Shown piece by piece: positions 1-36,496 of a DNA stretch of 64,000 nt (position 1 is its first letter; every line of letters starts with the position of its first letter). The position numbers were made by a program, and so were the translations under genes. A model generated the notes under the pieces. That model was not told the origin of the DNA. It saw only the letters and a program-made list of their open reading frames with translations, and searched no databases. Location of the stretch: assembly GCA_905178155.1 (NCBI GenBank), contig CAJINV010000004.1, positions 5,330,258 to 5,394,257 of the forward strand. The letters are read 5' to 3'. The DNA comes from Amoebophrya sp. A120 (lineage: Eukaryota > Protista > Dinoflagellata).

Positions 1-3000
1 TAACGTAGTGGAGCGCCCCGTCGCGAAACTCTGCGGCCCAAAACTGCCTGGAGAGGCCTCCGCGTTGCAGCTTCTATCCACTGCAAATATGTCATGTCTG
101 GGTCCTCTGGAAGATTGCAAGGTTTGTCATGCAGGTCTCGCATGGCCCATGAGGTCTTGAATGCAGGGCCTTGCATAACAAATTCTGCAGTGAGGTCTCT
201 ATCCTCCGTATCTTCCTGCATGAGAAACTCCCTCTCCACTTGCACTTGGTCGAAGCAAGGTCGGAAGCTTTTGCTAATCACGCTGACGAAACACAGATTT
301 TTGAATGATTCAGATTCAGCATGACAAGTTGCAGTGTTCCAGATCCAGACATATATACATTTGATAGGTTCAAACACACACTGATGTCCGAGGCGATTAT
401 ATTGGTCCCGGACCCCCATCGTATGCAAGAAAAAAGCTGTGATGTAGGTGTAACTCTGTAATGCAGAAAATGCAAGAGAGTTACGCCTGTCATGCCAGAC
501 AGCCACGCAGTCCTCTTCCCATGTGTGTTAGTTTTCCCTTACAAGCCACGCATGACAGGATTTTTGTTTCATGTAGAGCAACTCTGTGATGCTGTCAGCC
601 AAAGAAAGTTACACTAACACAGTTTTTTTTCTTGGGTACCTCGAGAGGAAAAATCGTACTCCGGTCTCAGCAACACCTGCGCCGCTGTGACCCAAGCGGC
701 GCCCGAGAATGTGGCAGACAGAGCTCGCACCGAGACAAGCGTGCCGACCATAGGCTCGGCTAGCAGGTTGCAGTCGCTCATGCGGTAGTAAACGAAGTCC
801 GGGTTGACGGAAGGCGTGCAGCCATCCTGAAAAAGCCAACACTCGCCGTTGCTTCCTATTGAATGTAAAAACGTCGTGGCTCCCACCCTGGACTCAAGTT
901 CTTGGAAACTTAGCAACACAAATGGTCCAAAAGCTTTGGAAGTAACGCATGGCGCATCACAAATTCTGTCAATCTTATACTTTTTATACTTATTAATACA
1001 GCATTACAAATTCCAAAACACGACGTAGAAATGTCGCTCATGCTCATGGGGATGCGCATTACAAACGTTCGCGTACCTGTACATGCAAATCTGCCTGACA
1101 AGAACTATGGGCGGGCGGGAACGTCTTTACTGAGGATAGTTCTCGTGAAAAACCCACCGCAATTTGGGGTGTTCGCGCACTGGTAGCGGCACTCGGCGAC
1201 GCTGTAAACCCGATCGTTGTAATAAATGCCCGACCCGAGCTGCTTGTCGTTCATATTCGCGCAGGCGCCCTGGAAGGTGGAGGGGCAGGAGGTCCCATCG
1301 ACGCGGGGCACGTACGCCTTACACTTTGCCTGGTTTTGCGCCATACTCCAGTGCTGCCATCCTGCCGCCGAGGATTGCGTACAGCCGTCCACAAAGTACA
1401 TAGCCTGCGCCTGCCCGTTGTTCTGGTTGCGAAACATCGCCACGCAGTTGTTGTCGTAGCCGCGGCCCCGACAAAACAGGTCGTAGTCGGTAATCTTGGT
1501 GTTGGCAACATTGGTCTGGTCCACCGTGGCAATGTCACTACCCGCGATCGCGAGGGAGTTAAATTCGTTGCACGCCCCGCCCCACACCGCGGGGCAAACG
1601 CGGCCCTTCAGCTGACACTGATTTAAGGAGTATTTTCTCCACCACGGCCCAATCCACCACGTGCAGCCCGAAGAGAGAAGATCGCACGTACTGCCTGCGC
1701 CTGTGCCGACAATGAAGTCCGCGCAACCATCCGTCATCGCGCACAGATACCGGCACTCCTCCTTCGAGTAAGGTCGGTCTGAGAAGAGACCGACCCTTTT
1801 GTCCTGCCATTGGCCGCAGCCACTTGTCATTCGGATTACGGGGTGTGGAGCGAAAGTGCGAAGACGAACCACACAGAAAAGACTCACTACCAGTCGGGAA
1901 CAATATCCAAAGGGATGCAGTTGGTCTCTCAAATAGGGATAGCCGGAAGGTTGAGGCTAGTCCCCAATTACTGCGCAGATTCTTAGCATTCACGGTATGC
2001 AATATAACTCAAGGCCTGTACGTATTCTTTCAGAGGGTGTCTTGGGTAAGTCTTCCACCCTGCTGGTTTTAAGGTCGTCCTGCTTCTTGTCCCGACCACC
2101 CCCAGAGCGGTGGCCGTGAAACAGCTTCGCACTAGTTCCGGGATCATTTAGGTCATTGGCTTCCTTGTGTTTCCTTCAGGATCTCTCTCAAGATTGTAAA
2201 GCTCATTTATTGGATCACTGGACAGGAGTGAAGCTACGCTGCGAATGGTTCGTCATTTATTTGCCATGGTCCCCCTCACTCCTGGCAATGTCCATACTAA
2301 CAGATAAAACGGAGTAGGTCGCTATCGGTTGCAGGTGCTTTGATATAAAAGAAACAAGCAGAATGAGTTTGCAGCGAGTAGCTGAAACCTGTAAAATTTT
2401 CGCCAAGTAAAGCTGTCTTAGTTTGCTTGCTCAAGGCCTTCAAAATATCTCCATCTCCGTCATCGAATCATCCTTCTCGACCTCCGTCCCCCTGTCGGGA
2501 CTTGTCCACTAGCATCCCCGTCGCTCTGTGTTCGTTTTCAATTATCCAGCACGACGATGTTGCTGAGTTTCAGGAATTCATAAAATTCGATTGCGGGGCA
2601 AACTTTAGTCAATCCATTCGGTCGATTGACTTTCGCACTGTGGTGGAGGGGTTTGATGCACTCGCGTAGAGTCAGGTCTTTGATTAATGCATGTCTGACG
2701 TCCCAATGTTTCAGTTGAGACTACGCACCACATGAACCTTGGCTGTAAGTAATCGCAGAACTGTTATCGCGTGCAAGGGTAATTGGAAGCAATAAGCTCT
2801 GGCTAATAAAATACTGACGCCACCAAGTTCGCAGCGAATCCAATACATAGTAGAAACGCGCAGCCATTTTGCTCGCTTCGCTCATGCCATATAATTCGGC
2901 TTCGCTGACGCTTGTAGATACTGAATGCTGAGGCACACTGCGCCAAGCAATTGCGCAACCGTTCAAGGTGATGACTACACCGAAGTTGGATTTTCGGTCC

Positions 3001-6000
3001 GAAAACGATGCCCAGTCCGAATCGCTCCAAGACGATAAGCCCAGCCTGTCACCGAAGGTCTCGCGGTTGTTCTTGTACTGCAATCCACGACGTGTCCGCA
3101 GGTATCTAAATAGACGCTTCAGGGCTGCAATGCTTTCAGCACTTGCTTTCACCCTGGCGCAGGCTTTTAGCGCTACTACAATATCTACACGCGTATGAGC
3201 TAAGTACTGCAGACTTCCGGCCATTTCTTGCTTAGGTTTCAAGAGTTTAGGGTCGTCCTCTGTTGCAGAATTCGCGGGAGATTCCATTGGCAACGTGACT
3301 GCTTTCCCAATATCCCCGCCGAATCTCTTCAGAATTTTCTGCGCGCAAACATCTTGGGAGAGCAAAATATCACCCGAGGGAGTACACCCCCACGCCTCAC
3401 AATGCCCAAAACATCATAGACGCGGTAGCGTCCCTCGTCACGTACTGTCTCAGGTTCTAGTTTCAAAACTGGCTTGAGTTTATCACGATACTTCGCGCCT
3501 TCCTCCTTCTTCCCGAAAAGCCAGAAGCTGTCAACAAATACCAAAAGCAAAACCAAGCCACGTTGCCAGAGAGTGGCCTCGATTGGATTGCGTTTCCAGC
3601 CTTGCTCTTCGAGTTTTGAATCCCTGTGGCTTTCCCACGCTTTACTACTTAGGCGCAGGCCGTTCATCGCATAGACTACAACAGCGTAGCGGTAGCTCAA
3701 CTCAGCCTGTAGTCGTGCGTCTAAATCGATAGCAACGCCATCAGTCGGGTAGGGAGCTTGTAAAAAGGCTGACGCAGCATCGCTGGGGAATGCGTACAAT
3801 CCTGGCGCCTGGCACTTAAGCGCTAACAACATGCGCAAAAGGCTAAGATCGGGACTAGAAGCATAAGAATCACACGAAGAAATCTCGTCCATAAATCCAA
3901 GACAAACAATTCTGAATTTGCATCCGCCACAGCGTTTGCGTGGCAGCAGCATCCTGCACGGAATTGGTCTGCTTCTTGACTTTTTAAGGGTTAGAAGTTC
4001 TTCTTCGGTTGCTTGTCTACATACATGCTTGCGGGCTGTGAGCTCCTTCTTGATAGCTGCACGCCATTCGTCGGTAGACGTGTCAAAGTCTTCTCGCTCT
4101 TTTGGTAGGGTTGCGACTTTAAAACAAGTCCCACCCTTTTCCCAGTCTCTAACTACTAAAGGCGCTAGCATAGCAATTAGGGCGCTCTCGTCTATGTGGT
4201 TAAGCTCTTCACTAGTTCTACACCTTTCGGCTATGTCAGCTGCTAGCGTTTGCAGCTGGCCCTCCTTTAGTTCTCTAGTTTCGGGCTGCGCCTCAACTAG
4301 TTCGCGGATTTGCTTCAGCGTCTTTAGGCGCTCTGCATTTCTCAAATGCCATGCTCCACGTACTGGAAGCGTTTCCTCGTTAGCTAGGACACTCCTAAGC
4401 TTCTCAGCTTCTTCGGCTTTTATTCTATCAGATACAGAATCCCTATCATCCTTAGTGAGCCGGAATCTCTTGGAAAGGCCTACGCCTTCCTCCCCGCCTG
4501 AAGCGGCTCGGGGCTCCTCACTGTCTGTCAACAGACTTCACTGGCTGCGACTGCTCCACTGAGTTACTTTTGCCACGCAGGCTGTCCGCGCATCTCTTGG
4601 AATGGGACTCCTCAGGTCGCAGTGCCTGGCTTTTCTCATCAGGACGCAACTCCTGGCTCCCTTTCACTTCGTGCCGCACAGGCTTCCTCTGCTCGCTGGC
4701 AGGATTGTGCCACACAGGCTCCCTCTGCTCACTAGCATGCTTCTGCACGCTGGCAGGCTTCTCCTTGTTACTTCCAGGCCGCACTGGCTGGGCTTCCTCA
4801 AGTTTCGGATCGAGTTCGAATTCGTCCTGATTTACTTTCGTTGGTCTTGTGCCCTTGCGCCTATCCGATGCATCGCTGACGACTTCTCTTTTCGCCTCTT
4901 CTTCAACAAACTCACCGACTGGCGGTAGCCTCTGCCCCACGGGCACCCTGTGCGTCTTGTATAAGATTTTCAACAGCATAGGAGGTAGCAGCATGTCACT
5001 AGCTGTCGCGTGCTTTCTAATATGACTAGCATGCCCGCGGCGATAGTGGCCGTCGTGATCTAGCTACTACAAAAGTTTGTTACTGAGTCCGGGCTGACTT
5101 GTCTATGGATTAGAGTCGCTGGACCCATCCACTCCTTCTTATCTTTATCAAACAACTCCACTAGCTCGCCTTGCTTAACTTCGTCGGACTCTTTGTAGCA
5201 GTTCCTTTGCGTTTCTCGCAGCTTCTTCATTTCGGCCACGAGCTGACTATCAGTTTTAACTTTTTCAATCCAGGCTCTAGCCTCGCAACGCATTTGGTAG
5301 GCTTCTTTTACTTCAGGGTCTTGCATAAGTGCAAGCTGCTGACCGCTTAAGTCCTCAGGGCCAGGGGGCTCCAACTTTTGGGGATTGGTAACCCCCTGAA
5401 CCTGGCACGGACATAGGCCATCTAGTGCGCTAGTTGGTGTCATATTGACAGCGTTAGTGGCTTGCTCGACTAATTTGGGGATAGGAGTGGTTCTCTGTCC
5501 GAATACATATCTGAGCCTGTGCAGAACAGACCTGCAGACTCTATGTCTACGCTCGCAGATACCATTTACCCAAGAGGCTTTGGGGGTTCCGAAGAGTTGC
5601 TAGCCATATAACTGACAAAACTGACGAACTTCAGAACTATCGAACTCCTTGCCTTGGTCGCGTAGGATATTCTTGCCGATAATCCCACACGGCTTGAGGC
5701 TTTCTAGGAGTTTTTTAGTGTCCTGCATTTTCGGGGCGCGCGTCAGTGTATGCGTTTTACTTGCGCGGCTGTGCAGGTTGATAGCATGCAAAACGGCATG
5801 GCTCTTGCCTACGGGCCAAAATGTGTCCAGCGCTACCCAGTCCGTCGGAGATCGAATTGGAATCGATTCCGCCGACCTTATCATGGGGGACGGCCATGGT
5901 CTTAAGGCGTTGCAAGTTATGTTTGCAGAAATGCACAACCAAGCCAGGAGCCTGTGGACTGTTGCCCATGGTTCTAATAATTTCCAATCCCAGACGTTCT

Positions 6001-9000
6001 GAAAGGTAGGTAGAAACAAGTTAGCAGCTACTTCGCATATTTTGCTGTATGGCAGGCAAGCGTCCATACTGTGGCGCGTGCTCAGTATCTCGCTTGCAGA
6101 ATTTCTTCGCGGGCATAGTGCGTTCTGGGTGTGGAGAAGCTTTTCGCTTCTTCTTTTTGGGCTTCTTTTTCGACTTTGCTGGGACAGGCTTCCGGCTGTC
6201 TTCTGCTGCGCTATCACTTTCACTCGTTAACTCTCCCACTTCTGTCTCAGGTGCTGCGAGAGTCTCAGGTGCTGCGAGAACCGAATTGCTCTGAGTCACG
6301 TGGCTAAACTGCACCTGTGTACTGTTTTCAACAGGTTCAGAACCTTTCGCGGTCTGGCGTGAGTCGAGTCCGCAAATTTGTCCACTTTTTAAGCAAATCG
6401 CGGCGAGACTCTGGATTTCTTCACTGCTGATTTCGAACGTTCTGGCCTGTGTAGTTAGGGGGCCAGCTGACACGGTTACTGGCTCATCGAAAAAGGCTGC
6501 CACTGTTTTCAGCTTGCTCTTGACCTCGTCGCTGATGACAGGGCAGAGCATTACAAGTTGCTTGCTCCGATTCATTCGAATTTCATTGATGATCTCCGAA
6601 GTGGAGAGGTTTGCTCCGTCTATTTCGTACCAAGCTAGTCTAGCATCACTACCAAAACCAACAAAGCTACTGAAATGATCAAAATTAGCGCACCAGAGTG
6701 ACTCCATAAGCTCCTGCGTGTTCGTGACAGAGCACTTCTCCACCGGATTCGCCACCAAGGAAGTGCATCGGAATCTTGACCGTAGTGAATCCTCCCAGGA
6801 TATGCGTGGGGAACTTGCTGAAGAAATTCATGCTGTCGATGGATACCGGAAAGCCGTTCACTTTTCCGCAAAAGATCCAGTGATAGGAGGGTCTTCGAAC
6901 CCAGGGGCTTCACGTCGACCACGTTCTTGAACATGCAACCCGTCGGGCCCCACATGTCTCCGACGGTACGACTTTCGCATACAAAACCGCTCGCAGTCGA
7001 GAAAGTCAGCTTCGTGTCTGCCGGGCGCAAGGAGTGCAACAAACTTAAGTCGCCACGCATGTGCCGGCTTGCACACGAGTCCACCAACAGGATGCAGCCC
7101 ACCACATTCGCACCGTGGGCAGTCTGTGTTGCGAAGCACTGCAAGCGCTCGGACTTTTTAGTGATTTCAATGCACGGGGCTGCCATGTAGTGCCCATAGC
7201 CATTTTGTTGCTGCGGCGGCTGCCACACCTGCTGGGCTGGGAGGCTGTTCTGCTGTTGCTGCTGCTGCAGTGGGTACGCCTGCTGCTGCGGCGGCTGGTA
7301 GACTTGCTGCTGTTGCTGCGGCTGTCCACCTTGGTTATTGTGGTTTCCCTGGTTCTGGTGGCTGTTGCCGTTGTTCGACTTCGTGGCCGCGGCGTACGAG
7401 CTGCCATTCTTGTAAATTCCGCTGGCTTCGTCGCGCTTTTTGTCACGGCATTCGGCAATGAAGTGTCCGGGGCGCTTGCAATAGTGGCAAGCACGGTCGC
7501 CCTTCTTGCCTTTGCCCTTTCCACTCTTCTGGCCGTGCTTTCCGCCACCCTTGCCTTTCCTGCCGACGAAGAGAGCTCCTTCAGCGTTTTCACGCTTGGC
7601 CGGGGGCTTCCACTGCGCCTGTGCCTTCGCGATACTGGTCGCAAGCTCGGAGAGGGTCTTGGGGCGATCATTGATAATGATCTTGCGCACCATTTCCGTA
7701 CAGTTGCGACGGGCAACACGGATGGATCACCTCGCGCGTGGCGATAGCTCCAGCTGGCAAAGCAGAATGCTTTTGCTGGAATTCGCGGAACCACTCGGAC
7801 GGCCTCTGCTTCTTCCCGTCCGTAATGCATTTCTCCAAACCTTCCGTCAGCAGGTCCTCGTCGCCATATTCCTCACGGAAAACGTCGCAGATCCGGTCGA
7901 GCTTTTCCGCTGCGCTCCGGATGTCTTTCAGCTCGGGCCGCTTGGTGATGGCCCGGTAGGTCCGCAACATGTCGACACAGGATGTCTTACCCTCGACATT
8001 CGCAGTGAAGTCTTTCGCGTCATGCTTCTCGCCACAGACAAACTCCCAACCATTCCCACATGGGCATCGTGGGACTCTCGGCGAAATTGGGGACCTTGGT
8101 CAAGGCGTTCTTGTTATCCTTCTTGCGCTTTTTCTTCTTCTTCTTCTTCTCGCCATCGTCTTCCTTTTCACTGCTAGAACCGGAATCGGAAGACGAATAA
8201 ACTTTCAGAAGTTGAAGAGAACCGCTTGCGCTTCTTGTCTTTCTTCTTCTGATTGCGCACTGGGCTGCGATTCTATCTTCTGCTCCTGGACTTTGGCAAG
8301 CTGCTCCTCCTTCATTCTCCTTTTTCGCTTGGGAGAGCTGTTCCGTCAGCTCCCACTTCAATTTGTTCGCGGCGTTGACTTGCTCCGGCAGTTGCTCCTT
8401 CTCGCGCTCCTTCTGGACGCGTTCCACCTCGGCTTTTTCACGCTTTTCGCGCTCCGGGTCCGCCTTTTCCGCCATCGTACCGAGCTGCTGCTGAATTTCG
8501 GTGGCGGCGTTTTCGCGTTTTGCTTCCGCCTGCTCTGCCGCTTCGTCGAGTTGCTTCCGCAGCTCAGCAAGGTCGCTGGCGCGCTTTTCTTCCGCCTGCT
8601 GCGCCTGCAGTTTCGCGGCTTCCGCCTCATCCTGAAGCTGTTTGCAGTTGTTCTCGCGATTGGTTTTCTCGCTGTCGCGATGCAAATAATTCTGCTCGAG
8701 GTTGCTCTTCTGCTGCGCCCAAATTCTGCAACTCCTTTTTGGTTTTCGAGAATTCCTCACGCTCGGCAACGCCGAAGGTGCTCCCGCCAGTACTCGGGTT
8801 CCGGGGGTTCTTGATTTTGTCGCCAGTAGGAGTCTGCGGCGCGGTGGTTTCCGGCTGCTGGATAGCAGCTTGCTGCCCTTCGGCTCCGGTATTCTTGTTT
8901 CCGCCGTTCATCCCGTTCCTGTTCTTCTTTTGCTTTTTCCGCTTATTACTGCCGCTGGTAGTGCTCGTTTTTTACTGCGGTGTGGTCGCTTAGTTAGTTT

Positions 9001-12000
9001 ACTGCAATGCAATTTAGGATGCATTTTGGGCTCATAACTCTGCTAAGCGAAAGCGCGAAGACGAACCACACAGAGCAGACCCAATACCAGTTGGGAACAA
9101 TACCCAAAGGGTGGGACGCAGTTGGTTTTTCAAATAGGGATAGCCGTAAGGTTGAGGCTAATCCCCAATCACTGTACAGATTCATAGCATTCACGGCATG
9201 CAATATAACTCCTATAAGCGGGGGCGGTTAAAACTTTGCGACGGGGAGGAAAATCGTCCACGCCGAAACTTTTTTCACACTTTTCAAACTTTCCAAAAAT
9301 TTCGCGACTTGCGAAATCGCTCACCGCCCACCGCTCAACTCCCATCGCCCAACTCGCAAAGTCCGTCTCCCATCGCCCAATTCGCAAATCCCATCGCCAA
9401 ACTCGCCACCAACCCCATCGCTTAGCACCCAACCCCCGCCGCCCACTTACCAGCTCCCAACCTTCATCGCCCAACCGCCATCGCTCAACTCTCATCGCCC
9501 AACTATTTTGCAACGCAAAATATTTTGCGCCTCGCAATATTTTGCGAATCAAAATACTCTGCAACGCAAAATATTTTGCAACTCCAAATATTTCGCGACT
9601 CGAATTACTTTGCAACGCAAAATATTTTGGAAGTCGGAATATTTTGCAACTCCGAATATTTTCCAACCCTCGGGAAATATTCTGACCAGAAAATATTTCG
9701 CAACAACCCCCGAAAAAACCGCCTCCCCCGTTTTTGCAGCTTTGAAAGCGGGGGGCATGGGGAGGGCAGAAGACACGGGCTCCCAACTTCCGTCGCCCGA
9801 TTGCCAACCTTCATCGCCCAGCCCCCAACTTTCATCGCCCAACCCCCATCGCTTCGCTCGCATCTATTTTGCAACGCAAAACGTTTTGCCAATTAAAATA
9901 CTTTACAAAGCGAAATACTCTGCGACGCAAAATATTTCGCAACTCAAAATATTTCGCAACTCGAAACATTTTGCAACGCAAAATATTTCGCAAGCCAAAA
10001 AATTTTGCAAGTCGAAACATTTTGCAAGTCGGAATATTTTGCAAGCCAAAAAATTTCGCAAGTCGAAGTATTTTGCAAGTCGAAATATTTTGCAGCCCTC
10101 GCAAATTATTATGACCAGGAAATATCTCGCAACAACCTTCCAACGAAGCCGCTTCTTCCGTTTTTGCAGCTTTGAAAGCGGGGGGCACGGGGGGGGCGGG
10201 AAACACGGGGAAAACGTACGGGAAGCACGGGGAAGGCTGGAAGCACAGGAAAAGCGGGATGCCCAGGAAAGGCGGGGAGCACAGGAAAAGCGGGAAGCAC
10301 GGGGAAAACGGAAAGCACGGGGAAGACTGGAAGCACGGGGAAAGCGGGAAGCACGGGGAAAGCGGGAAGCACGGGGAAAGCGGGAAGCACGGGAAAACGG
10401 GAAGCGCGGGGAAGGCGGGAAGCATCAGCCCACGGGGAAAGCCGCCCGCCCGCGCCACAGCACCAGACGAGCAGCTGCCCACCACCCATCCCCGGCGCCC
10501 TCCCTCTGTTCACGAGGAGAACGGCAGAGGGCGCCGCCGTCCGCCGCCTCTTGGAGGCAGGCAAGCACGGGGAAAGCGGGAGCACGGGGAAAGCGGGGAA
10601 CACGGGGGAAGCGGGAAGCACGGGGAAAACGGGAAGCACGGGGAAAGCGGGAAGCACGGGGAAGGCAGGGGGCACGGGGAAGGCGGGAAACACGGGGGAG
10701 GCGGCCGGGAAGCGCGGGGAAGCCGGGGGGCGCGGGGATGGTTGGAAAGCGAAAGCACCGGCCCAGGGGGAAAGCCGCGCCCAAGCACCAGGCGAGCAGC
10801 TGCCCACCACCCTCTCCCGGCGCCGTCCCACTGTTCACGACGAGACGGGCAGACCGAGGGCGCCGCCGCCCGCCGCCCCTTGGAGCGAGGCTGGCTGGCT
10901 GCGCGCGAGAAGAGGCGGGGGCGGAAGAGATTGCGCGCGAGCTAACGCGTGGGGCGCCGCTGTTGTCCGGGGGTGCGGGGAGAGGGTGGCGGGCCCCTGC
11001 GCCTGGAGAGTAGGCTAGAAATGCCCCGCCCCGGCGCCCGCCCTCTATCCACGCGCGTGGCAGGGGCCACAGCGAGCCAGCCAGCCTTTGTTCTGCAAGG
11101 CTGCGCGCGGGAGAAGAAGGGGCGGCGGCGCCAGGGCGTGCAGGAGCGGGGCGCACCGGCAGGCTTCACGGACGCGCCCACACAACAGACGCGCGGACGG
11201 GGCGCCACGCGCCAGCGCCGTGCATTGCGCGGGCTGTTTTCCTGCTTCCTTCCCTCGTCCTCTGGCGCCCGCCCGCTGCCACGCTTTGCGTAGCGTTGTT
11301 GGGCCTAAGGCTTGCCGCCTCAGAAACGCGCGCCCAATGCGGGCGGGGTCCTCGCGCTCGCACAACGACGGGAACCACGGGCGCCATGGCGCTCCGCCTT
11401 CGTTCTTTCAGCACGAAGCGGCGCAGGGGCTTGGCCCCACCCTGCATCAAAAATCTTTTCCCTTGCCCACCCTCTGACGTTTTTCTTTCCCCCCTGTCAA
11501 CTCGTTCACCCCCCCACTGCGCGACATAAGCTGCGGCCTTGTAACTCAAGGCCTGTACGTATTCAGGGGGTGTCTTGGGTAAGTCTTCCACTCTGCTGGT
11601 TTGCAGGTCGTCTTGCTTCTTGTCCCGACCACCCCCAGAGCGGTGGTCGTGAAACAGCTTCACACTAGTTCCGGGATCATTTAGGTCATTGGTTTCCTTG
11701 TGTTTCCTTCCGGATCTCTCTCAAGATTGTAAAGCTCATTTATTGGATCACTGGACAGGAGTGAGTCTACGCTGCGTGTGGTTCATCATTTATTTGTCGT
11801 ACGGGGCAATTTGCGTCGCTGTCTAGCAAAGGGGTGTCTTGTTGGTCGATGCACTGCGCCTCGTTACGCGCCAGTGTGTAGTACGGGAAGTCGTAATTGC
11901 CGGCCTGCCTCTTCCTGGTCGTCGCCATTGTTGGGTCGATCTGGCACCCAGCCCGGTAAAAAATGCAATCCAGTGTGATACTCGGAAGTCGAAAAATCAC

Positions 12001-12486
12001 GAACGCGACGCACCCGGAAATGGCCCGACACTTCGTGTCACAGGACCGCACCGTCTCGCTGGCGGTGTTGGTCCGCGAAATCTCATACGTGGCACTGCTT
12101 TCGTCGCACCCGCCACCCCGCTCCGGTAAGCACAACGGGTTGAAAAAGGGCTCCAAGGAAAAAGCGGCCTGAACCAGAGGGAGGTGAAAGTAGGAGGAGC
12201 TGCTCTCGTCGACTAAAAACAAAAAGCAGCAGAAAAACAAGAACAACAAACACGGAGCGAGAAGAACGTAGAAAAAGTGAGACCACGCATGTAGTTTTTT
12301 AGTATTTCGCTTTGATGTTTTCGCAGTCCCAGCGGCACTTCCACTTCCCGTCCTCGTCGTTCTCGTGGCCCAGCGCTTAAGCAACAAGATCCTGCGGAAC
12401 GCACTGCGGAACATGCGGAAGCCGCACCGCTTGCTCTCCCTCGCGCCGCGCGGCGCATCCAGAAACAAATGCTGCTCGAACAGCAT
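1..12486 (-). CDS. Gene 1 (3'-partial): Cys-rich PAN/apple-like repeat protein, interrupted by the Copia element and three introners
   Basis: Exons ~11802-12486, 1139-1843, 639-856, 367-421 and 1-74 join in frame (DANCPV|IRMTSGC; CGGFFTR|SNGECW). YSxxECRYxC repeats; hydrophobic stretch FFYVLLAPCLLFLFFCCFLFLV near the N-terminus. Start codon uncertain. Confidence 0.7.
75..366. mobile_element. Introner A1
   Basis: Family A TIR TATCAAATGCAAAAATGTCTGGGTCTGGAA (degenerate copy); DR GCTTC/GGTTC. Confidence 0.85.
422..638. mobile_element. Introner F1
   Basis: Family F TIR TATGCAAGAAAAAAA.CTGTG; DR CATCG/CCTCG. Confidence 0.8.
857..1138. mobile_element. Introner B1
   Basis: Family B TIR TATCCTGAGTAAAAACGTCCCCAC (degenerate copy); DR CTTCC/GTTCT. 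Confidence 0.8.
1844..2268 (-). repeat. Copia 3' LTR
   Basis: Aligns to 9041-9211 plus 11542-11801; adjacent to the polypurine tract. Confidence 0.9.
2269..2283 (-). promoter_or_regulatory. Polypurine tract
   Basis: AGGAGTGAGGGGGAC on the minus strand, immediately before the 3' LTR. Confidence 0.75.
2600..3365 (-). pseudogene. Copia RT C-terminus/RNase H, disrupted
   Basis: WSDSDWAS..DRKS and IAWRSVPQHSVSTSVSEAELYG motifs; premature stop at 2721. Confidence 0.9.
3329..4531 (-). pseudogene. Copia reverse transcriptase, frameshifted
   Basis: DAASAFLQA, YAMNGLRLSSKAW, LLVFVDS (YVDD-like). Confidence 0.9.
5060..6100 (-). pseudogene. Copia integrase, disrupted
   Basis: DWVALDTF...LRDQGKEF catalytic motifs; stop at 5600. 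Confidence 0.8.
6635..8911 (-). pseudogene. Copia gag-protease, frameshifted
   Basis: CCHC knuckle CHYCKRPGHFIAEC, protease LLVDSCASRHM, Q-rich linker, charged N-terminal fragments. Confidence 0.85.
9027..9040 (-). promoter_or_regulatory. Primer-binding site (copia half-tRNA-Met type)
   Basis: GAGTTATGAGCCCA right after the 5' LTR; resembles the copia PBS GGTTATGGGCCC. Confidence 0.65.
9041..11801 (-). repeat. Copia 5' LTR, split by a 2.33-kb insertion
   Basis: Halves 9041-9211 and 11542-11801 match the 3' LTR. Confidence 0.9.
9212..11541. mobile_element. Non-coding satellite-rich insertion in the LTR
   Basis: Flanked by a TAACTC duplication (9206-9211, 11542-11547); contains CATCGCCCAA, 17-bp GCAACGCAAAATATTTT and 18-bp GCACGGGGAAAGCGGGAA arrays. 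Confidence 0.8.
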
Positions 12487-12504: not shown

Positions 12505-12825
12505 TATCAAAAGGAAAAATCCCCCCTCCCCATATCAAAACGACGTCTCTGACGCAGGAGCTGCGTACGCAAATCTGATCTGTCTTGCTGGAGAGAAATG
12601 CAGGCCCATACTAAGCCTAAGGGGAGAGGTTTTGGCCCAGGCGTCTAGCATGGGGAACGTCCGTGCTGTAGGCCCATCAGCATCACAAACCGCCTGCACA
12701 ATGCTGCGGAGCTTGTGGAGTTGCCTCCTTGCAAGACAGACGCGATTTGTGGTCTCAAATCAGCAACACAAATTTTCGGAAACATAACTTTTCGATATGG
12801 GGAGGGGGGATTTTTCCTCTCAATA
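12505..12825. mobile_element. Introner C1 (upstream of gene 1 CDS)
   Basis: Family C TIR TATCAAAAGGAAAAATCCCCCCTCCCCATATC; DR not conserved. Confidence 0.8.
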
Positions 12826-18900: not shown

Positions 18901-21900
18901 CCGCCCACGCCTGTTCGAACACGTCCTGCGTGGTGTTTGTTATCCCACAGAAAAAGCAGGCAGGGTGCGTATGCGTTTGTAATGCAAAATAAATAACTCG
19001 CATTGCATACTTATCCCTATCCCAAACAGCACGATATGGGCGAGCCCGTTCCGAGAGCTTCAGCTTTCTGTGAACTTCTCATGCTATGCGTTTAAAAATA
19101 TGCTCTGTCTGTCTTTTTCTGTGGGATATTCTTGGCCCGTAGCCCAAAGGCAGCAAAAACCTGCAGCACCATCTCGTTTGTGTAGGTTAAATCCTCCGTT
19201 ATTTCCGCCACCTCGACAATTAGAGCTTTCAGAAATTAGTTCCCAGAGCAGTTCCTAAAACCTTCGGCTTTCAAAAATTTTGAAGCAGGTGCGTAGGATC
19301 TGCGTTTCGACCGGTAGTCCCGGTCTCACTACAAGTCCTACACACGCGACTTACAGAAATTGGTTCCCAGGACTTCCGTGTTTTTTCTACATCGCCTCAT
19401 TTCGACACGCGGATCGAACTTTCACGAGCAAAGCGGCAAAGTTCGGCACTTTGCGCGTGAAAGTTCTCTGGCAGCTCACATCCGCGAAGTTCTCGGATGT
19501 GAGCTGACATCCGAGGAATTCTTGTATGTGGGATCCTGGGAACTAATTTCTGTAAGTAGGGTGCGTAAGATCTGCATTTCGATCGGTAATCCCGACCTGA
19601 GTGCAAATCCTACGCACGCGACTTACAGAAATTAGTTCCCAGGATTTCTTCTAGAGTCTCAAGGTGCCTCTGAGGCACCTTGAGATTCTAGAAGAAATCC
19701 TTTGAGATTCTAAAAGAAATCCATTGGATTTCTTTTAGAGTCTCTTTGTGTTCTCAGGAAGTTGCAAGCTTGAAAAGGTCTCGCGGAAACCCCTTTCCGA
19801 GACCCTTTGGTGGACCCCTTTGGTGGACCCTTTGTTAGGTCGTGACTAAGGTACTTTGCGCGACCCTTTTGAAGACCCCTTTGCAAGACCCCTTTCCGAA
19901 CACTTTTTCCGGAAGTTTTCTTGTAGAAACTGAGTTCCTAGAAGAAAACGCAGATTCTTCTTCTAGAAGAAGCTGCGTCTTCTTCTAGAAGAAGACGCGA
20001 AGTTTTGTCTTCTTCTAGAAGGCTGGTCTTCCTGTAGAAGACACAGCTTTTTTTTCTTCTAGAAAACGCAGCTTCTAGAAGAAGCTGCTTCTTCTTCTAG
20101 AAGAAGCTGCGTTTTCTTCCTAGAAGAAAAAGCAGATCGCTCTGCACATGTGTTCAGGAGCACACTTCTAGAACCTAAGCTTTCACTCTGGAGCACACTT
20201 CTAGAACCTTCAGGAGCACACTTCTAGAACCTTCAGATCGCTCTGCACATGTGTTCAGGAGCACACCATTTTTTTCAAACCTAAGCTTTCGGGAACACCG
20301 GTAGGAACTAATTTCGTAGGTTAAATCCTCCTTATTTTCCGCCACCTCGACAAGGGTGGTCGGCTCGGGCTCCTTTTGCGGCGGTACTAGTTCATTTTCC
20401 CCGAGGACCTCGTCCCGCGCTTGTCTCGGAAGTTTTTCATTTTTCCGTTCTTTCGCTTCAATGATCTCCACGTGGTCCTTCTGTCGGCTTATTTCTTGTT
20501 CCGGCTCTGCTCTACTTCTCCGTGTTGTATCTGCAGCGAGAGCGACTGTTGAAGAAGTGCTCGTACGAGCGACATGATCTTCTTCCCTATGGGTGGAGGT
20601 GTCGTGGTCCTCTTTCGGCTGACTGTGCTGAAACTCTTGGTCCTCAACCTGCTCTCCTCGTCCCGCGCGATTAGTTGTAACTGCGTGCTCCTGTTCCTGT
20701 TGTCGCTCTTGTTCTTCCTCCTGCTGCAGCTTGAGAGAAGTAGTGCCGCTCGCTGCGCCGGACGCGGAGGTGCTGGTCCTAGTACTTCTTTTACTTGTTC
20801 TTCTTGTGCTCGTTTTCATCACGACGTCTTGCTGCAAAAGGAGCGCTGTCCCGCTGACGCCGTTGGGGGCGACCGCAGTCTATTGAGAGGAAAAATCCCC
20901 CCTCCCCATGCATATTGAAAAGGCACGTTTCCGAAAATTTGCGTTGCTGATTTGTGACCACAAATCAGGTTTGTCTTGCAAGAAGACAAGTGCAGAGGCA
21001 TCCGCCCAATTGTGAAGCAATTTGGCATGCTGTTGGTCCTAGAGGGTAGCCGTTTGCAATGCTGAACAACTAGACCTGAGCGCTCCCACCCAGGCTGCGG
21101 ATCTGGCAGGGGTGCCGTACTGCAAGACAAGTCGGATTTGTGTAAGTACACAAATCAGCATCAGAAATCTCCATTTTGATATGGGGGATTTTTCATTTTG
21201 ATACGGTCGACAAGATCGTTAGGGTGGCGTCTTCAATCTGGAACAGCTCAATGCCCTGCACCCCGAGATCGTCCTTCACGAAGGTCGCGAGCCCCTGCTG
21301 CAGGGCGGCCAAGAGGCCCGCGTCGGTCTCCAGGTCCGCCAGTCCAAGCGTGGCCGTGTTGTCGACGGTATCAAATGCAAAGATCTCTGGGTCTGGAAAC
21401 TTGTGATGCTGAATTGTGGATGACTGAAACACTTCGCAATGCAGCTGAGCATGACAAGTTTCCCGCACACTTTCTCATGCGCATTCCGCATGAGAAACTG
21501 GTGCGCTCTTGTATGCCAAAAGAGGGCACTATCTTTTTGCTAGTCATGATGCAACACAGATTCTACAGGAGTGCAGGGCTAGCATTACAAGTTCCATGCT
21601 TCCAGACCCAGACATATTTGCAATGCATAGACGGTGAGGTAGTGCAACATCTCGCGGACCGCCAGCGGCAGGGTCGAAGTGGTGGTAGTCGTGGTGGTAG
21701 TGGTGGTGGTGGTGGTGGTCGTGGTGCTGATTGGGACCGGCGCTAGCGCCTTCGCCTGGTACAAGAAAATCCCACAGAAGCTCTATTACACTGAAAAGTG
21801 CCAGCAACCCGCAAGTTGGACTTGGAACTGTTTCTGATGCATCTCTTGCATGACAAGCGCCGCTCTTTCTGGGCTCTTTTGTAATACCAATAATAGCCGC

Positions 21901-24900
21901 CTCAGCGGGGGTAGTGAGGTCATGACGGTTTTTTTGTCTTCACTCCAAAAAACGACACGGCCTCCCTTCCCACCATGCCGCCGTGAGTAATGTTATGCAC
22001 GACGGCACGGCGGTCGCTAAAAATCTCGAGCCAGCGGCGGCCTCCATTTGGTTTCGACATGAAAAACCTTCCCCGCATGCTATGGCCCCGCCAGGGTCGG
22101 CCCCTTGGGAGCCCCAAATCGGGCCCATAGCGTGCGGATTGGCTTTTTGCTTTTGGCGGACTTTGTTTTTTTTTTGTTTTTTTTGTTTTTTTTTTGTTTT
22201 TTTTGTTTTTTTTTTTTTTGTTTTTTTTGGGCGCATCATTCATCGCAACTCTAATCACATAGTCAATCTTCTTTTTTTGTTTNNNNNNNNNNNNNNNNNN
22301 NNNNNNNNNNNNNNNNNNNNNNNNNNNNNNNNNNNNNNNNNNNNNNNNGGCCCATAGCACGCGGATTGGCTTTTTGCTTTTGGCGGACTTTGGTTTTTTG
22401 TTTTTTTTTGGAAAAATGCCGCATCTTCTGGCCTTAAGTCCGCCTCTGAAATAGCGGATTTTGGTGGCGTCTTTTGCGGGGCCCGACTGTGGGCCAAAAT
22501 GGGGCCCATACCATGCGGATTTGCTGTTTTTTTCGGATTGTTGCTTTTCGGGCGCCCCTTTCTGGGCGCCCCAAACCGCCAGAAGCTAAGGCGGTGGGCG
22601 CCTCAGAAGGGCGCCCCTTTTGCCGGCTCCCCTGCGTCGTTTTATCAAGCGGGAATCGATAGTTTTCGACCGGGCTTGTTTGACGGCAAAGCCCCGGCAG
22701 CTTGATAATTGAAAATTTTTTATGTCAATAAACACTTTCGCCCGCTTGAAAACTGCCGGCCGTTTTGCGCACTGCATGGCAAAAAAAACAGCCAGGGTAG
22801 AACGTTCGTGACCTCACTACATACAAATTTTCACCATTAAAAATCTGTGATTTTTATACATGAAACAGGGAGAGTGTTCCCATTTTTGGGAAGCTTTGCA
22901 ATACAAATGCTTCCACGTTCTGGGGTCGTCGTGGGGGCACTTTTCAATATGATAAGCTCAGCCCCGTCGCGCTGGAGCCGGTCGCCGCCTGGATGCGCAT
23001 CGACTTAAACGTGCGGTTGCCCACCTGATCGGGAAAGGGGACCCAGGTGCCGCCATATTGACTGTTGACGTCCGCTATCAACTGCAAATATCTCTGGGTC
23101 TGGAAACTTGTGATGCAAGTCAGGGAGCAATGCGCGCACTGTAATGCACTGCCAAGCATGAACAGTTTTTCCGTGGTTCTGAGTTACGTATTCCGCATGA
23201 GAAACTTTGTCTTTGCATGACAGGCAAGTGGAGCTCTTTGCGGCCACGCAATACAGAGCTCAGAGTCATGTCAGACAAGCATGACAAACCTTGCATCCTT
23301 CCAGACATCCAGGGGTATTTGCAATGCCTATCCGCCGGCAGGGTAAAGGCGAAGTCCGTCTCGCCGTCAAAAAATACTTCCGCGCCAGAGAGTATCGCGA
23401 GAAAAAACTAAATCGGTCTCAACTTGTAATGCGCAACTTCCTTGAGACAGTTTTTTGTCATGCTGGAGATGGAAGAATAAAGCAGTCTTTCCTATGTGTT
23501 TTCTCTCGCTGTCTGAACGCATCACAAGTTTTTTCTTTCTTCCGACTTCGCAAATTTCTTTTGCTGGATCTGCACCATCAAAGGTTTGAGACTCTGAGAC
23601 ATCAACAGTTTTTCGTACGATAAAGAGGCTGTTTGCGGGCGGCGTGCTCCCGACGGTGGGGTCGCGCGCAAAAATCTCGAACCCGGCCACTGCCTGCTCG
23701 AACAGCGGCCAGTTTTCCTCCGTCGCGGCCGTGAAGTCCACCTGCCAAAAAGGGAGGACGCCGGTGGCCGCGCCAACGTCGCTGTGACAGCAGAGTCGCG
23801 CGGTGTCGGCCACTGCAGTCGCGTAGTCGGTCTCGATGCCGGCGGGGGTGCGGTCGGGGAATATCACACAGAAAAAAGCTGGCAGGGCACATTTGTAATG
23901 CAAAAATAAATACACAAAAAAACCTGTATTGCATATCGAACGCCGCATGCTATGGGGCCACCCATGACCAGTTTTTGTGTGTATTTATTTTTGCATTACA
24001 AATATGCCCTGCCAGCTTTTTTCTGTGTGATAGGGAAAATCCGGTTCCAAACGTTGCCCGCCCCGCACACATATCAAATGCAAAACTGTCTGGGTCTGGA
24101 CACTTGTGATGCTGTGTGGCGTATCATGGGGACGCCACAAGTGCTGGCTCAGCATGACAAGTTTCTGTAGCTTCTAGGTGTTGCCTACTCTGCATGACAG
24201 ACCGCGTTTCTGCACGACAGAAAAGTGGGGCCCTTGGGTAACGTGCATGACAGATTTGAGAGTCATGCCAGACAAGCATGACAAACATGCACTCTTCCAG
24301 ACCCAGACATTTCTGCATTTGATAGTACACCCTCCGCGCCGCCCGCGCAGTCCCCAGTAGCCAAGTCGGCCGGCCCCTGGGACGCCGTGAACTGCGCACT
24401 GTCCAGGGGCACCAGCGCGCCCAGGTATGAGAATGCACAAGAACTCGTGGTCGCCCTCATTTGAAGGTGGGCATGAAGAACAGCAACACAAGCAACAGCA
24501 GAAAAGGGGCTCCTTCGTCCGCATGCTAGCCAAAATCTGCACGCGGATTCTAGTACTGTTTGAGATTCCAAAATTTTGTATCATGCAAGTTTGGTGCTTA
24601 CGAGCAAGAAGGTGTGAGCTCCACTTCCAGGCTGCAGCGTTTGGTGCTTTGCATTACAACTGAGGGCGAGGAGGTGAACTTCGAGTTGTGCACTCTCATA
24701 CCACAGCGGGAAAACGCGGAAGGTCGGCTCCGCCGCAGTAGCAGAGCCGCAGGTGGTTGTTGTCTGGGCTGATCGCGTCGCACCGGGAACGAAACCCCTT
24801 TTGGTACGCTCCCAGCGGAAACAAGAGGCAAGACCAGTCCCCGCCGGTGCCGCCGACCTCCGCCGCAAACAGCGGAGCGAAGGAGAAGTGGTCGGCCGCG

Positions 24901-33900: not shown

Positions 33901-36496
33901 TAGTCCCTTGCTTTCATTTCATGCTGACCGACCGGCCCACTTTAGGGGCGCCTGCGCGAAGGAACTAAGCTAGAAGGATCCGCCGGATCCCGAAACAAAA
34001 AAACGCACCAAGATGGTGCGGCAACATAAGGATCCAGAGACCGCAAAAAGGAACGGGGGGGGCCCTTGGCTAGCGCTACCGGCGGTGCTAAGAAACCTAA
34101 AAAAAATTTTGGATTCTAAAAATGAATGTCAAAAATGCTAACTTTGGATTCTAAAAAAATCTGTATTGCATGACCAGCAAGAGAAGTCTAGTTTGTGCTA
34201 CGCGGGGAGGACATTTGTCATGCGGAGTAGGCATCGATCAGGAAGCCCTTAAAAGTCTGTGATGCTCGGTCGTGCATTGCAGACATCCTGGCTCATGGAA
34301 AATATGCATGACAAACCCGGCAACATTCCAGACTCAGACATTTTTGCATTTGATATGCCAGGTGAAATAGTCGAAGCCGGGTTTGACCTTAATCCGGTCC
34401 CCGTTCGGATCCAGAAACCGCACGCACCAGCTGTTATCCTTGTTCCAAGGCTCCTCCGTGGCCCGGCCCTCGCCCTTCATTTTCACCACGGTATTGTCGT
34501 TGTCTACCTTAATATCCACCACCACCGCGTGTTCTCCATCGTCCGAGCTGCAGTCTTTGTCCAAAATGTCAACCGACCCCCCGTTCGGATACACAACCGC
34601 CTCCTTGCCCTCAAAAACATCGCTCTGGACCTGCCCGGACCGCACGCCCTGCTCGGCCAGATTAATCTCCGTCTCGAGCCGCGTTGTGGTACTCGTGCTG
34701 GTCGTGGGCGGCATTTTTCTAGAAGCAGTCATATGCAGCTTCCTCTTCTGCTGCCGTTTTTTCTCTTTCATCTTCCCTCCTGTCTTTGTTCGTACTTGTT
34801 GTTTCTGTTGTTTCATCTCACGACTTAGCTCTCCACCGACGTGCTGCCGCTCCGTCTCAACCGCCGCAACACCAAGATCCTGCTGTGCTGCTGTCGCCGT
34901 CGTCGTCGCGGCTTCGTCCCCTCGTCTAATATCTTCTTGTTTTTGCCGCTTCTCCTTTTTGCGAAAAGTTGTGCTTTCGAGCGCTGATGAATGATCCTTC
35001 TGTGGTGGTCCGCGCACGGCGGATGAAGAGACCACGGACGAAGAACTTCTTCTACGAGTTGATGTACTAGGCTCTTCACTTCCACTGCTAAAGCTCGCCG
35101 TGGAGGAAGCCTCGTGGTCTCTGTGCTGCTCAAGAATACCGTTGTCAGTCGTCCGCGAAGATTTGCGCTTACTGTTAGTCTCAGTACGCCCGCGTGGAGA
35201 AGCAGAAGACCCCGGTATAATTTCGACATTTTTCTTGGACGACAACTTGGACGTCGAAGATTCTCTATTGCTATTCTTCAGTTCATCCACCGGCGACTCT
35301 TGCCATCGAAAGCGCTCCACCAGGTCGCCATTTGGCTTTTCCGAAGATCCCACGCAAAAAGAACTGCCCAGCGCCTGTTGTACAGTCTGCGACGCCAGCG
35401 CCACCGCGGCCTCGTCGAGGGTCTGCTTGCTGCCCCTTTGATGTCGGGCACAGGGATCCACCCTCGTTTGGCACTCGCCGGTACTCTTTTTCAGCAGAAA
35501 GCTGCCGCAGTTACTGGTGGTCGCACACAGGTAGCGACACTCCTGTCTCGTGTACTTTCGGTCTGTGTAGCGGGCAAGAAGGCGGCTCGCGTCGTCGTGC
35601 TGTCGAGATGTTGACTCTGCTGCAGCTGCAGCTTCCGAAAACTTGTCCTCGGGGCGGCCCTCTGGTTGCTCTACTTCTTCCAACTCGCACTGCTCTTCAC
35701 TGTCGTCCCAATCTTCTTCCATATAATTTCCGCTGGTGCTGGTTTTTAGTTTAGATGCTGACGTCCTCGACTGAGCAGCGAGATCCTCCGCTTTCGATCT
35801 TTTGGCTTTCCCATCATCAATCGTTTTCCTGCTCTTGTAGTTCTTCTCTAGAAGTTCTACTTTGCATTCGGACGCTGTCGGTATGTCCGGAACATCATGC
35901 CCCGGCACACACAAGATGTCGTTGCGTGCGATGGAGTACGTTATCACCGCTTTGGCTGCGAAAGAGGAAGCTGATGGTGGTGAACTTCTAGTGCTTGGTG
36001 CTTTATTCAGTGCTGATTTCGTCACGTCAGAAGTTGTGTCCACTGCTGTAAAGTCTACATTTTGGCGCTCGTCCCCAGCAGTTGGCCTTGTCCCACGAGA
36101 ACTCGGACCACTAGAGGCATGAGTACTACTTCTAACATCACTCCTCCCGCCCGCAGCAGGCGGTCTGCACCCGGTGCGGTAATAGCCGCAAATCCCGTCG
36201 GCGTCGATGGCGAAAAACGCACACTCTTTCAACCCGCGGCAAACTGCGTCGCATTGCTTCACCGTACTTCCCGTGCTCACCGGCTGCGGCAACAGCACCT
36301 CGCCGGCGTTTTCGCACGTGCCGGCCCACTCTGCAGGACACAGAATGGTGGCGGCCGCTTGCAACTGCTGCTGTTGGAACACGGGAGTTTTTACAGCCTG
36401 CGGTCGTGCCCCATGCTTGCTGCGCGGCTCCACCGCCCCGTTGCGCGCGGCGAAGAGCCGGCTCAGCGTCGCCACCCGGTGGTCGAGGTACACCAT
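15916..36496 (-). CDS. Gene 2: ~2860-aa Cys-rich multidomain protein (PAN-like, CBM-like, repeated Cys module plus galactose-binding-like domain, Thr linkers, C-terminal F-type-lectin/F5-8C-like domain); 32 introns
   Basis: ATG of MVYLDHR at 36496, TAG after LNEIKVFGRP at 15916. Removing 31 introners (+5 bp each) and the 1134-bp insert leaves 8583 nt (2861 codons). Checked junctions match gene 3; not every exon was checked for stops. Confidence 0.8.
15963..16274. mobile_element. Introner G1
   Basis: Homologous to 44128-44439; DR GCGGG. Confidence 0.85.
16315..16565. mobile_element. Introner A2
   Basis: A TIR; DR CCCAC. Confidence 0.9.
16760..17065. mobile_element. Introner C2
   Basis: C TIR; DR TCCGG. 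Confidence 0.9.
17136..17400. mobile_element. Introner A3
   Basis: A TIR; DR TTGGC. Confidence 0.9.
17462..17718. mobile_element. Introner A4
   Basis: A TIR; DR CACCG. Confidence 0.9.
17809..18059. mobile_element. Introner A5
   Basis: A TIR; DR ATGGG; removal restores LPITRVQVF. Confidence 0.9.
18242..18465. mobile_element. Introner E1
   Basis: Family E TIR TATGACAGTGCACAACTCCCCCTCCCCCTCAT; DR TCCAG. Confidence 0.9.
18576..18791. mobile_element. Introner E2
   Basis: E TIR; DR GCGTC. Confidence 0.9.
18941..19128. mobile_element. Introner H1
   Basis: Family H TIR TATCCCACAGAAAAAG; DR TTTGT/TTCTT. Confidence 0.85.
19220..20315. mobile_element. Palindrome-rich insertion in a gene 2 exon, flanked by a 38-bp duplication
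   Basis: DR 19182-19219 / 20316-20353; IR GAAATTAGTTCC (19232-19243, 20304-20315); long internal palindromes. Confidence 0.8.
20881..21203. mobile_element. Introner C3
   Basis: C TIR; DR CAGTC/CGGTC. Confidence 0.9.
21369..21629. mobile_element. Introner A6
   Basis: A TIR; DR GACGG. Confidence 0.9.
21784..22954. mobile_element. Introner D1 with nested insertion
   Basis: Family D TIR TATTACA.TGAAAAATGCCCCC (degenerate copy); DR AGCTC. Confidence 0.85.
21888..22820. mobile_element. Asymmetric-IR element nested in introner D1
   Basis: ATAC duplication, IR 21911-21925 / 22806-22820, hairpin 21897-21908; contains an N gap at 22283-22348. Confidence 0.7.
23076..23330. mobile_element. Introner A7
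   Basis: A TIR; DR TCCGC. Confidence 0.9.
23393..23622. mobile_element. Introner F2
   Basis: F-like TIR; DR GAGAG/AAGAG. Confidence 0.8.
23862..24032. mobile_element. Introner H2
   Basis: Long H TIR; DR GGGAA. Confidence 0.9.
24072..24324. mobile_element. Introner A8
   Basis: A TIR; DR ACACA/GTACA. Confidence 0.9.
24426..24700. mobile_element. Introner E3
   Basis: E TIR; DR CCAGG/CCACA. Confidence 0.85.
24922..25243. mobile_element. Introner C4
   Basis: C TIR; DR CGCAC. Confidence 0.9.
25411..25682. mobile_element. Introner A9
   Basis: A TIR; DR ACAGA. Confidence 0.9.
25998..26289. mobile_element. Introner B2
   Basis: B TIR; DR CGTGG. Confidence 0.9.
26741..27049. mobile_element. Introner D2
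   Basis: D TIR; DR CGGCG/CGGTG. Confidence 0.9.
27096..27357. mobile_element. Introner A10
   Basis: A TIR; DR GTTTC. Confidence 0.9.
27661..27947. mobile_element. Introner A11
   Basis: A TIR; DR GATCG/GGTCG. Confidence 0.85.
28251..28503. mobile_element. Introner A12
   Basis: A TIR; DR CCGGC. Confidence 0.9.
28557..28835. mobile_element. Introner B3
   Basis: B TIR; DR GTGCG. Confidence 0.9.
29464..29742. mobile_element. Introner B4
   Basis: B TIR; DR TGCCC. Confidence 0.9.
30998..31245. mobile_element. Introner A13
   Basis: A TIR; DR CCCGT. Confidence 0.9.
31444..31705. mobile_element. Introner A14
   Basis: A TIR; DR TAGTG. Confidence 0.9.
31791..32001. mobile_element. Introner F3
   Basis: F TIR; DR CGCAG. 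Confidence 0.9.
32068..32343. mobile_element. Introner A15
   Basis: A TIR; DR TGGAA. Confidence 0.9.
32408..34355. mobile_element. Introner A16 with nested non-LTR insertion
   Basis: A TIR; DR TGCCA. Confidence 0.9.
32468..34134 (-). mobile_element. Non-LTR (TPRT-type) insertion nested in introner A16
   Basis: 16-bp TSD ATGCTAACTTTGGATT (32452-32467, 34135-34150); (TTCAA)n tail; no RT motif recognised. Confidence 0.75.

Follow-up and report, generated by a model that had tools for sequence, protein, structure and literature searches.

The window analysed here, a stretch of 64,000 nt of contig CAJINV010000004.1 of the dinoflagellate Amoebophrya sp. A120, includes on its minus strand the start of a gene (gene 1) that has a decayed Copia long terminal repeat (LTR) retrotransposon within a coding exon. 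A sequence-only reading of the window had proposed that this element is spliced out like an introner. The non-canonical introns and introners of A120 are described, for introns of 40–1000 bp and as far as the available text goes, as having direct repeats at the borders and inverted repeats in an organism missing U1 (Farhat et al. 2021, PMC7789003). Transcript contigs give strong grounds for the conclusion that the element is removed from the transcript, as was proposed.

Organisation of the gene 1 locus

The exons of gene 1 and the parts of the element are as follows, in the order of transcription.

11807-12486, minus strand: upstream coding exon of gene 1 (12486-11800 including the repeat, 687 coding nt), MLFEQ...DAN followed by CPV in the repeat; exact match to residues 1-229 of the public gene model P0001
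11800-11806, minus strand: 5' copy of a 7-bp direct repeat that reads CCCCGTA on the strand transcribed; a target-site duplication (TSD) of 5 bp, CCCCG, would be 11802-11806
1844-11801, minus strand: decayed Copia LTR retrotransposon, within the coding exon of gene 1
11544-11801, minus strand: 5' LTR, first part, TAC start
9213-11543, minus strand: nested insert of 2331 nt that splits the 5' LTR; introner geometry
9041-9207, minus strand: 5' LTR, second part, CA end
9028-9040, minus strand: primer-binding-site-like motif, by sequence
2544-8907, minus strand: decayed gag-pol with a coiled-coil gag-like part, zf-CCHC, protease, integrase, reverse transcriptase and an RNase H-like region
2269-2282, minus strand: polypurine tract, by sequence
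1844-2268, minus strand: 3' LTR, 425 nt, ACA end
1837-1843, minus strand: 3' copy of the 7-bp direct repeat, TACGGGG on the plus strand
1141-1836, minus strand: downstream coding exon of gene 1, 696 coding nt, IRMTSGC..., PAN-like
853-1139, minus strand: small introner of gene 1 that serves as an internal control, being absent from the transcripts of each of the four RNA runs
638-853, minus strand: exon of gene 1, matching P0001
365-415, minus strand: exon of gene 1, matching P0001
2-67, minus strand: exon of gene 1 that continues past the window (the P0001 model has 1112 amino acids)

All five exons in the window are free of stops and match P0001 exactly. The ~700-nt exons on both sides of the element (687 and 696 nt) and the three exons further downstream are open and in frame, as had been observed. 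P0001 bears the database label Amoebophrya sp. A120, and the product of the downstream exon matches it at 100%. The upstream exon encodes a predicted membrane anchor and a Cys-rich region.

Removal of the element from the transcript

Eight sequencing runs contain the gene 1 exon wholly or partly. Four of them (X1-X4) represent one sample in the form of assembled contigs; that they are RNA is a guess, none of the runs listed being on record as RNA. Contigs were compared with window positions 1-9300 and 1100-9000, and the join was read from the letters of the overhanging contig ends. Each of X1-X4 has a contig that follows the exon without a difference as far as position 1843 and then departs from the stretch compared. 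The 30 overhanging letters in X3 and X4 correspond to 11807-11836, which is unique in the window; the contigs of X1 and X2 extend 691 and 395 nt past 1843, their letters not being among those listed. The segment omitted is:

1844-11806, minus strand: skipped segment, 9963 nt, a multiple of 3, so that the frame is kept

The same four runs all jump from 1140 to 852, omitting the introner at 853-1139, which contig 14 of run X7 crosses unbroken. Thus, X1-X4 behave as spliced RNA. Run X5 behaves as DNA at ~40x coverage, and one of its contigs (1593-2110, no differences) crosses 1843 at a depth of 39, as compared with 39-45 for the other long pieces listed. Such single-copy depth over a filled site speaks against the presence of an empty-site copy in the X5 sample. 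An exon-exon junction in RNA is therefore accompanied by a filled site in DNA, as expected for an intron, both being seen in contigs and the former in one RNA sample.

P0001 also contains the join, where it reads DANCPVIRMTSGC. According to the available text of PMC7789003, the public A120 gene models were built from transcript alignments, and P0001 is therefore perhaps not independent of the RNA runs. X4 includes 160 nt of the element interior without differences to this copy. The near-absence of X1-X4 cover over the interior was not used as evidence. The raw RNA runs X9 and X10 are uninformative, since the presence of the organism in them is not established; their short partial matches, 36 and 19 in number, fell at repeats and none on exons.

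Structure and decay of the element

The domains follow each other on the minus strand in the order zf-CCHC, protease-like, rve, RVT_2 and RNase H-like region, which is the order of gag, protease, integrase, reverse transcriptase (RT) and RNase H characteristic of Ty1/Copia elements. Pfam matches of the window element are weak and under the cut-off; its A120 relative P0003, 63% identical in RT, passes RVT_2, and the RNase H region was assigned from its position and similarity to the P0003 C-terminus, with no Pfam match. Two direct LTRs enclose the polypurine tract and a putative primer-binding site, motif 9028-9040, which may resemble the initiator-tRNA-fragment site of copia. The domain order, the split LTR and the 2331-nt insert bear out the description of a decayed ~10-kb Copia element with a nested insert.

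The LTRs are 91% identical: 38 of 421 ungapped columns differ, mostly by transitions, one of them falling in the first bases of the nested insert, and there are two 4-nt indels. Nine mismatches lie in the first 60 plus-strand columns, the same number as counted previously. Relative to P0003, pol has five frame changes and at least two stops, in agreement with the several frameshifts or stops reported for gag-pol. Mismatches between the LTRs are concentrated at the ends (16/100 vs 22/321, p 0.009; 0.008 to 0.024 over three window sizes, chosen post hoc), which is a weak hint of selection on LTR ends.

A 5-bp TSD had been claimed. CCCCG fits, but the exact flanking repeat is 7 bp long (TACGGGG). 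The element begins with TAC and ends with ACA if the TSD is CCCCG. Two readings of the termini are available, namely a 5-bp TSD with TA...CA or a 7-bp TSD with CG...CA, the second of which puts TG in the 3' LTR. The 5-bp reading is favoured because A occupies position 2 of both LTRs and the polypurine tract ends immediately before. A metagenome scan returned no sister copy that would fix the termini and the TSD length, and no relatives of the element came from two metagenome scans with P0003 and alignment A1 as queries. One X5 contig connects 2282 to 3566 at a depth of 143 (28 letters on the short side) and is possibly a deleted derivative of the Copia element elsewhere in the genome.

The nested insert has TAC...ATA ends, a TSD of TGAGT/GGAGT (4/5 match) and paired ends (-42.5 kcal/mol). 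It contains 17- and 18-nt minisatellites, and no long coding frame was recognised in it. As judged by these features, it could be a large introner-type element, that is, an intron within an intron.

Borders of the skipped segment

Owing to the exact 7-bp flanking repeat, there are eight equivalent cut registers. None of the eight has an AG acceptor, and the segment is hence neither a canonical nor a GC/GA-AG spliceosomal intron. A canonical AG acceptor near the junction was looked for without success, the nearest AG lying >40 nt upstream of the junction. Register 1840-11802 reads GT...CC. Where the TSDs of gene 1 introners are mismatched, they bound the position of the cut at TSD base 4 from both sides: at or before base 4 for 853-1139 (from RNA) and at or after base 4 for 416-637 (from the model only). 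A base-4 cut applied to the Copia element gives G|TAC...ACA-CCCC. The GTACGA register inferred earlier is consistent with these two other introns of gene 1. Introner 416-637 starts with TAC too. The TA start of the Copia element depends on choosing the 5-bp reading.

The window is rich in introners. Its minus strand was searched for paired-end segments with 5-nt flanking repeats, blind to the end letters. This gave 78 hits, 40 of which start with TA (39 TAT, 1 TAC); many others pair inside or between repeats. As counted by hand, a TA start is present in 35/41 hits with a perfect repeat. Among the 40 TA-starting elements, 37 end with ATA and one permits G(T/C/A)-AG borders; in 17 of them the TSD closes with G. 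A loose scan for TA starts returned mostly chance hits, and only introner 62988-63253 was used from it. This introner, located in a Band_7/SPFH gene, has a perfect TSD and an ACA end, as had been stated for an introner of the SPFH gene, and its removal keeps the frame.

Compared with the features that define A120 introners, the Copia element has the direct repeat of 3-5 nt over the borders, its 7-nt repeat including the 5-nt TSD. It lacks the terminal inverted repeat of 8-20 nt starting with TAT: it starts with TAC and ends with ACA, and pairing begins 14 and 19 nt inside.

Several other segments of the window are of use in this context. An introner-like element at 12505-12825, just upstream of the start codon, has flanks that share no 5-bp repeat and provides a natural test of the need for a TSD. 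Segments 19942-20118 (AAG...CTT) and 38035-38332 (CGA...TCG) have paired ends, perfect 5-bp repeats and non-TA starts, and are candidates for a test of the TA rule. An assembly gap of 66 N at 22283-22348 is outside the finding.

Predicted pairing of the element ends

A cue absent from the sequence-only reading is an inverted repeat shared by the first bases of the 5' LTR and the last bases of the 3' LTR (22/28). The arms of the predicted stem are:

11754-11787, minus strand: 5' arm (predicted), intron nt 15-48
1863-1895, minus strand: 3' arm (predicted), near the 3' LTR end

The stem formed by the two 60-nt element ends has a predicted energy of -43.0 kcal/mol, as compared with a shuffle mean of -23.3 ± 3.8, and none of 2000 shuffles reaches it. 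Among 1244 windows, the best three partners of the first 60 nt of the intron are those of the 3' LTR end. Stems of the window introners range from -37 to -92 kcal/mol with a median of -56, and that of the Copia element is within this range. The count of Watson-Crick pairs for outer ends (29/31) as compared with inner ends (22) is biased to the outer pair from which it derives and was not counted as evidence. Folding of a whole LTR as one long hairpin was also tried and was rejected.

Maintenance of gene 1

In 5000 simulations of neutral decay at the LTR rate, the 1716 coding nt of gene 1 in the window escaped both stops and frameshifts in 0.4% of cases and escaped stops in 6.6%, the indel rate being based on two events. 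An A25 ortholog of gene 1 was found neither among the 2 matches of one protein search nor among the 5 matches looked up of 59 in another. Further members of the same Cys-rich PAN-like family are located at 35450-36343, 51103-51822 and 57387-59427, one of which is P0006 or near it by gene number. One X5 contig lacks the introners at 67-365 and 415-639; it is a paralog with empty sites and is useful to date introner gains.

Proposed mode of removal

It is likely that the dead full-length Copia element is skipped in frame by the non-canonical splicing of the introners, and that it is recognised because its ends mimic theirs. RNA polymerase would read through 10 kb, and the start of the 5' LTR would then pair with the end of the 3' LTR (~28 pairs, beginning 14 and 19 nt inside the element), so that the element is closed as introners are by their hairpins. 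The duplicated target would be cut internally, probably after base 4, which gives a G|TAC 5' end and a CC 3' end without AG, and the mRNA would keep one copy of the repeat. As to the nested TA-ended insert, it may leave along with the Copia element or separately. On this proposal, the host gene stayed open during the decay of gag-pol because removal works.

A number of observations weigh against this interpretation. The four RNA runs are contigs of one sample whose kind was guessed, the DNA run is from another sample, and P0001 may not be independent. The TA start is uncertain, as the 7-bp alternative fits too. The stem is predicted, is weaker than most introner stems and stops short of the element ends; the 3' end pairs better with 8 of the 1244 windows than with its true partner; of the four pairings of LTR ends, outer-outer is the best when 60, 80 or 100 nt are taken but loses this rank at 40 nt; and the whole LTR folds no better than its shuffles (z 0.12). 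Finally, the cysteines on either side of the junction enclose 8 residues in P0001, as compared with 6 in the three closest homologous units and 7 in the other eight aligned. This gain of two codons lies within ~12 nt of the insertion site (window 1825-1843) and may be an unrelated micro-duplication or a footprint. Hence, removal may not restore the pre-insertion sequence exactly.

The suggestion that the machinery neutralises any insertion with a 5-bp TSD went further than the data support. As the element also has a TA start and paired outer ends, a TSD alone cannot be separated here from a TSD plus TA plus stem. A further reading, put forward as a tentative possibility, is that A120 has a length-independent insertion eraser, free of U1 or non-spliceosomal, that reads the integration scar together with paired TA-type ends. 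A 10-kb LTR element with a nested insert would then be a silent intron, with its outer LTR ends kept as splice signals and its inner ends drifting or pushed from pairing. As a single case carries all the cues, those that are needed cannot be singled out.

Alternative explanations

Splicing could be real and the short direct repeat sufficient, so that a target duplication would be enough for any insertion to be removed. Such a rule is in keeping with the skipping of an element that belongs to another class and is 30-40 times as long as usual, and with the free variation of donor and acceptor letters among the window introners and, in the available supplement of PMC12130899, among A120 families. 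However, a repeat of 5-7 nt should not by itself pick a partner 10 kb off, the Copia element and its nested insert both have TA starts and paired ends, and the unusual TA-started ends of the sole survivor fit a filter. This explanation is considered unlikely.

About as unlikely is a relaxed spliceosome that uses a GT donor composed of the host G and the element T and a non-AG acceptor set by the downstream exon, with the stem being incidental. GTACGA is indeed present in the likely register, G is the commonest last TSD base (17/40), and the available text of PMC7789003 reports most spliceosome proteins in A120. Against this, the last TSD base is not G in 23/40 introners, U1 was undetected in A120 according to the same text, and the distance of >40 nt to the nearest AG applies here as well.

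The same join would result if the transcript stemmed from a strain, allele or identical copy with an empty site, or if the element were excised from DNA in the sampled stage. The RNA and DNA samples differ, gene 1 has paralogs, and 185 overhanging contig ends of the DNA-run comparison are outside those listed. Nevertheless, the X5 contig crosses the junction at single-copy depth, the expressed paralog visibly diverges at 1631, X4 holds interior sequence of this very copy, and the insertion is old, all of which make such a source very improbable.

Equally remote is a reverse-transcriptase template switch across the stem at the direct repeat, or an assembly artefact. A direct repeat with a stem is a known setting for template switching (PMC8240250, PMC2923612), and the evidence consists of contigs. 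But none of the RNA-run pieces listed runs from the exon into the LTR (19 further pieces are outside the listing), the four libraries agree on the base at which the join falls, the join is in frame, and gene 1 has remained open.

Joining in trans of two gene halves transcribed apart is hardly credible: contigs do not tell cis from trans and read-through of two LTRs is assumed, but X4 has a trace of interior sequence and the geometry is the same as in short cis introns.

Relation to known introns and transposable elements

Copia-derived introns and the non-canonical introners of A120 are already published, and the join itself is already implicit in the public annotation. In switchgrass, introns are formed by full-length Copia elements as well as by solo LTRs (Gozashti et al. 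2025, PMC12130899, available text). One such switchgrass Copia family has mostly standard donor and acceptor dinucleotides, in contrast to the A120 Copia element, which is without AG. The text of the same paper, as available, counts LTR retrotransposons among the A120 introners, and Copia RT, RNase H and integrase domains are listed for A120 family 3; the paper's table gives LTR as the final class in 0/58 A120 families. An introner in the sense of that paper has at least 4 similar copies that act as introns of unrelated genes, a number which its pipeline needs. The gene 1 identifier is absent from 14 supplement files of that paper. A120 introns of up to 35 kb are tabulated in PMC7789003 but, in its available text, not described.

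Like the A120 introners in the available text of PMC7789003, the element has a border direct repeat, a TA start, paired ends and non-GT-AG borders, with a mechanism that is unexplained there too. The introners are ~240-nt non-autonomous elements, terminal-inverted-repeat-like, with terminal repeats, whereas the segment described here comprises 9963 nt, is an LTR retrotransposon, has its stem set in from the ends, and is not known to have sister copies that act as introns. Thus, the element works like an A120 introner, is not one by the terminal-repeat criterion, and is Copia by structure.

Among non-TGCA Copia elements, e.g. tomato TARE1, the combination of TA...CA termini and a 5-bp TSD is a known variant, enriched near genes (10.1101/137141, available part). 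No splicing role appears in that part of the account, and the TA terminus of the A120 element is putative. Nonconventional introns of euglenids are similarly non-GT-AG, with ends that pair a few nucleotides inside the borders and unexplained machinery (PMC12501133, available part). They differ in needing a CAG/CTG motif at a set spacing and belong to an unrelated lineage. A search that left most subscription papers and the supplement of PMC7789003 outside found no account in which a complete LTR element is removed without AG in the A120 system, and the available parts of the reviews PMC11282704 and PMC11453091 include no such case.

How tens of thousands of non-GT-AG introns are removed in A120 is an open question. 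The gene 1 locus indicates that the process copes with a 10-kb element of another transposon class that has no AG and no true terminal repeat. The rule is narrowed to a few candidate cues that can be put to the test, namely a target repeat, a TA start, a set-in stem and a cut after base 4, and the inner and outer LTR ends provide a natural control. If this holds generally, insertions into exons could be close to neutral in the lineage whatever their size, which would explain its intron explosion.

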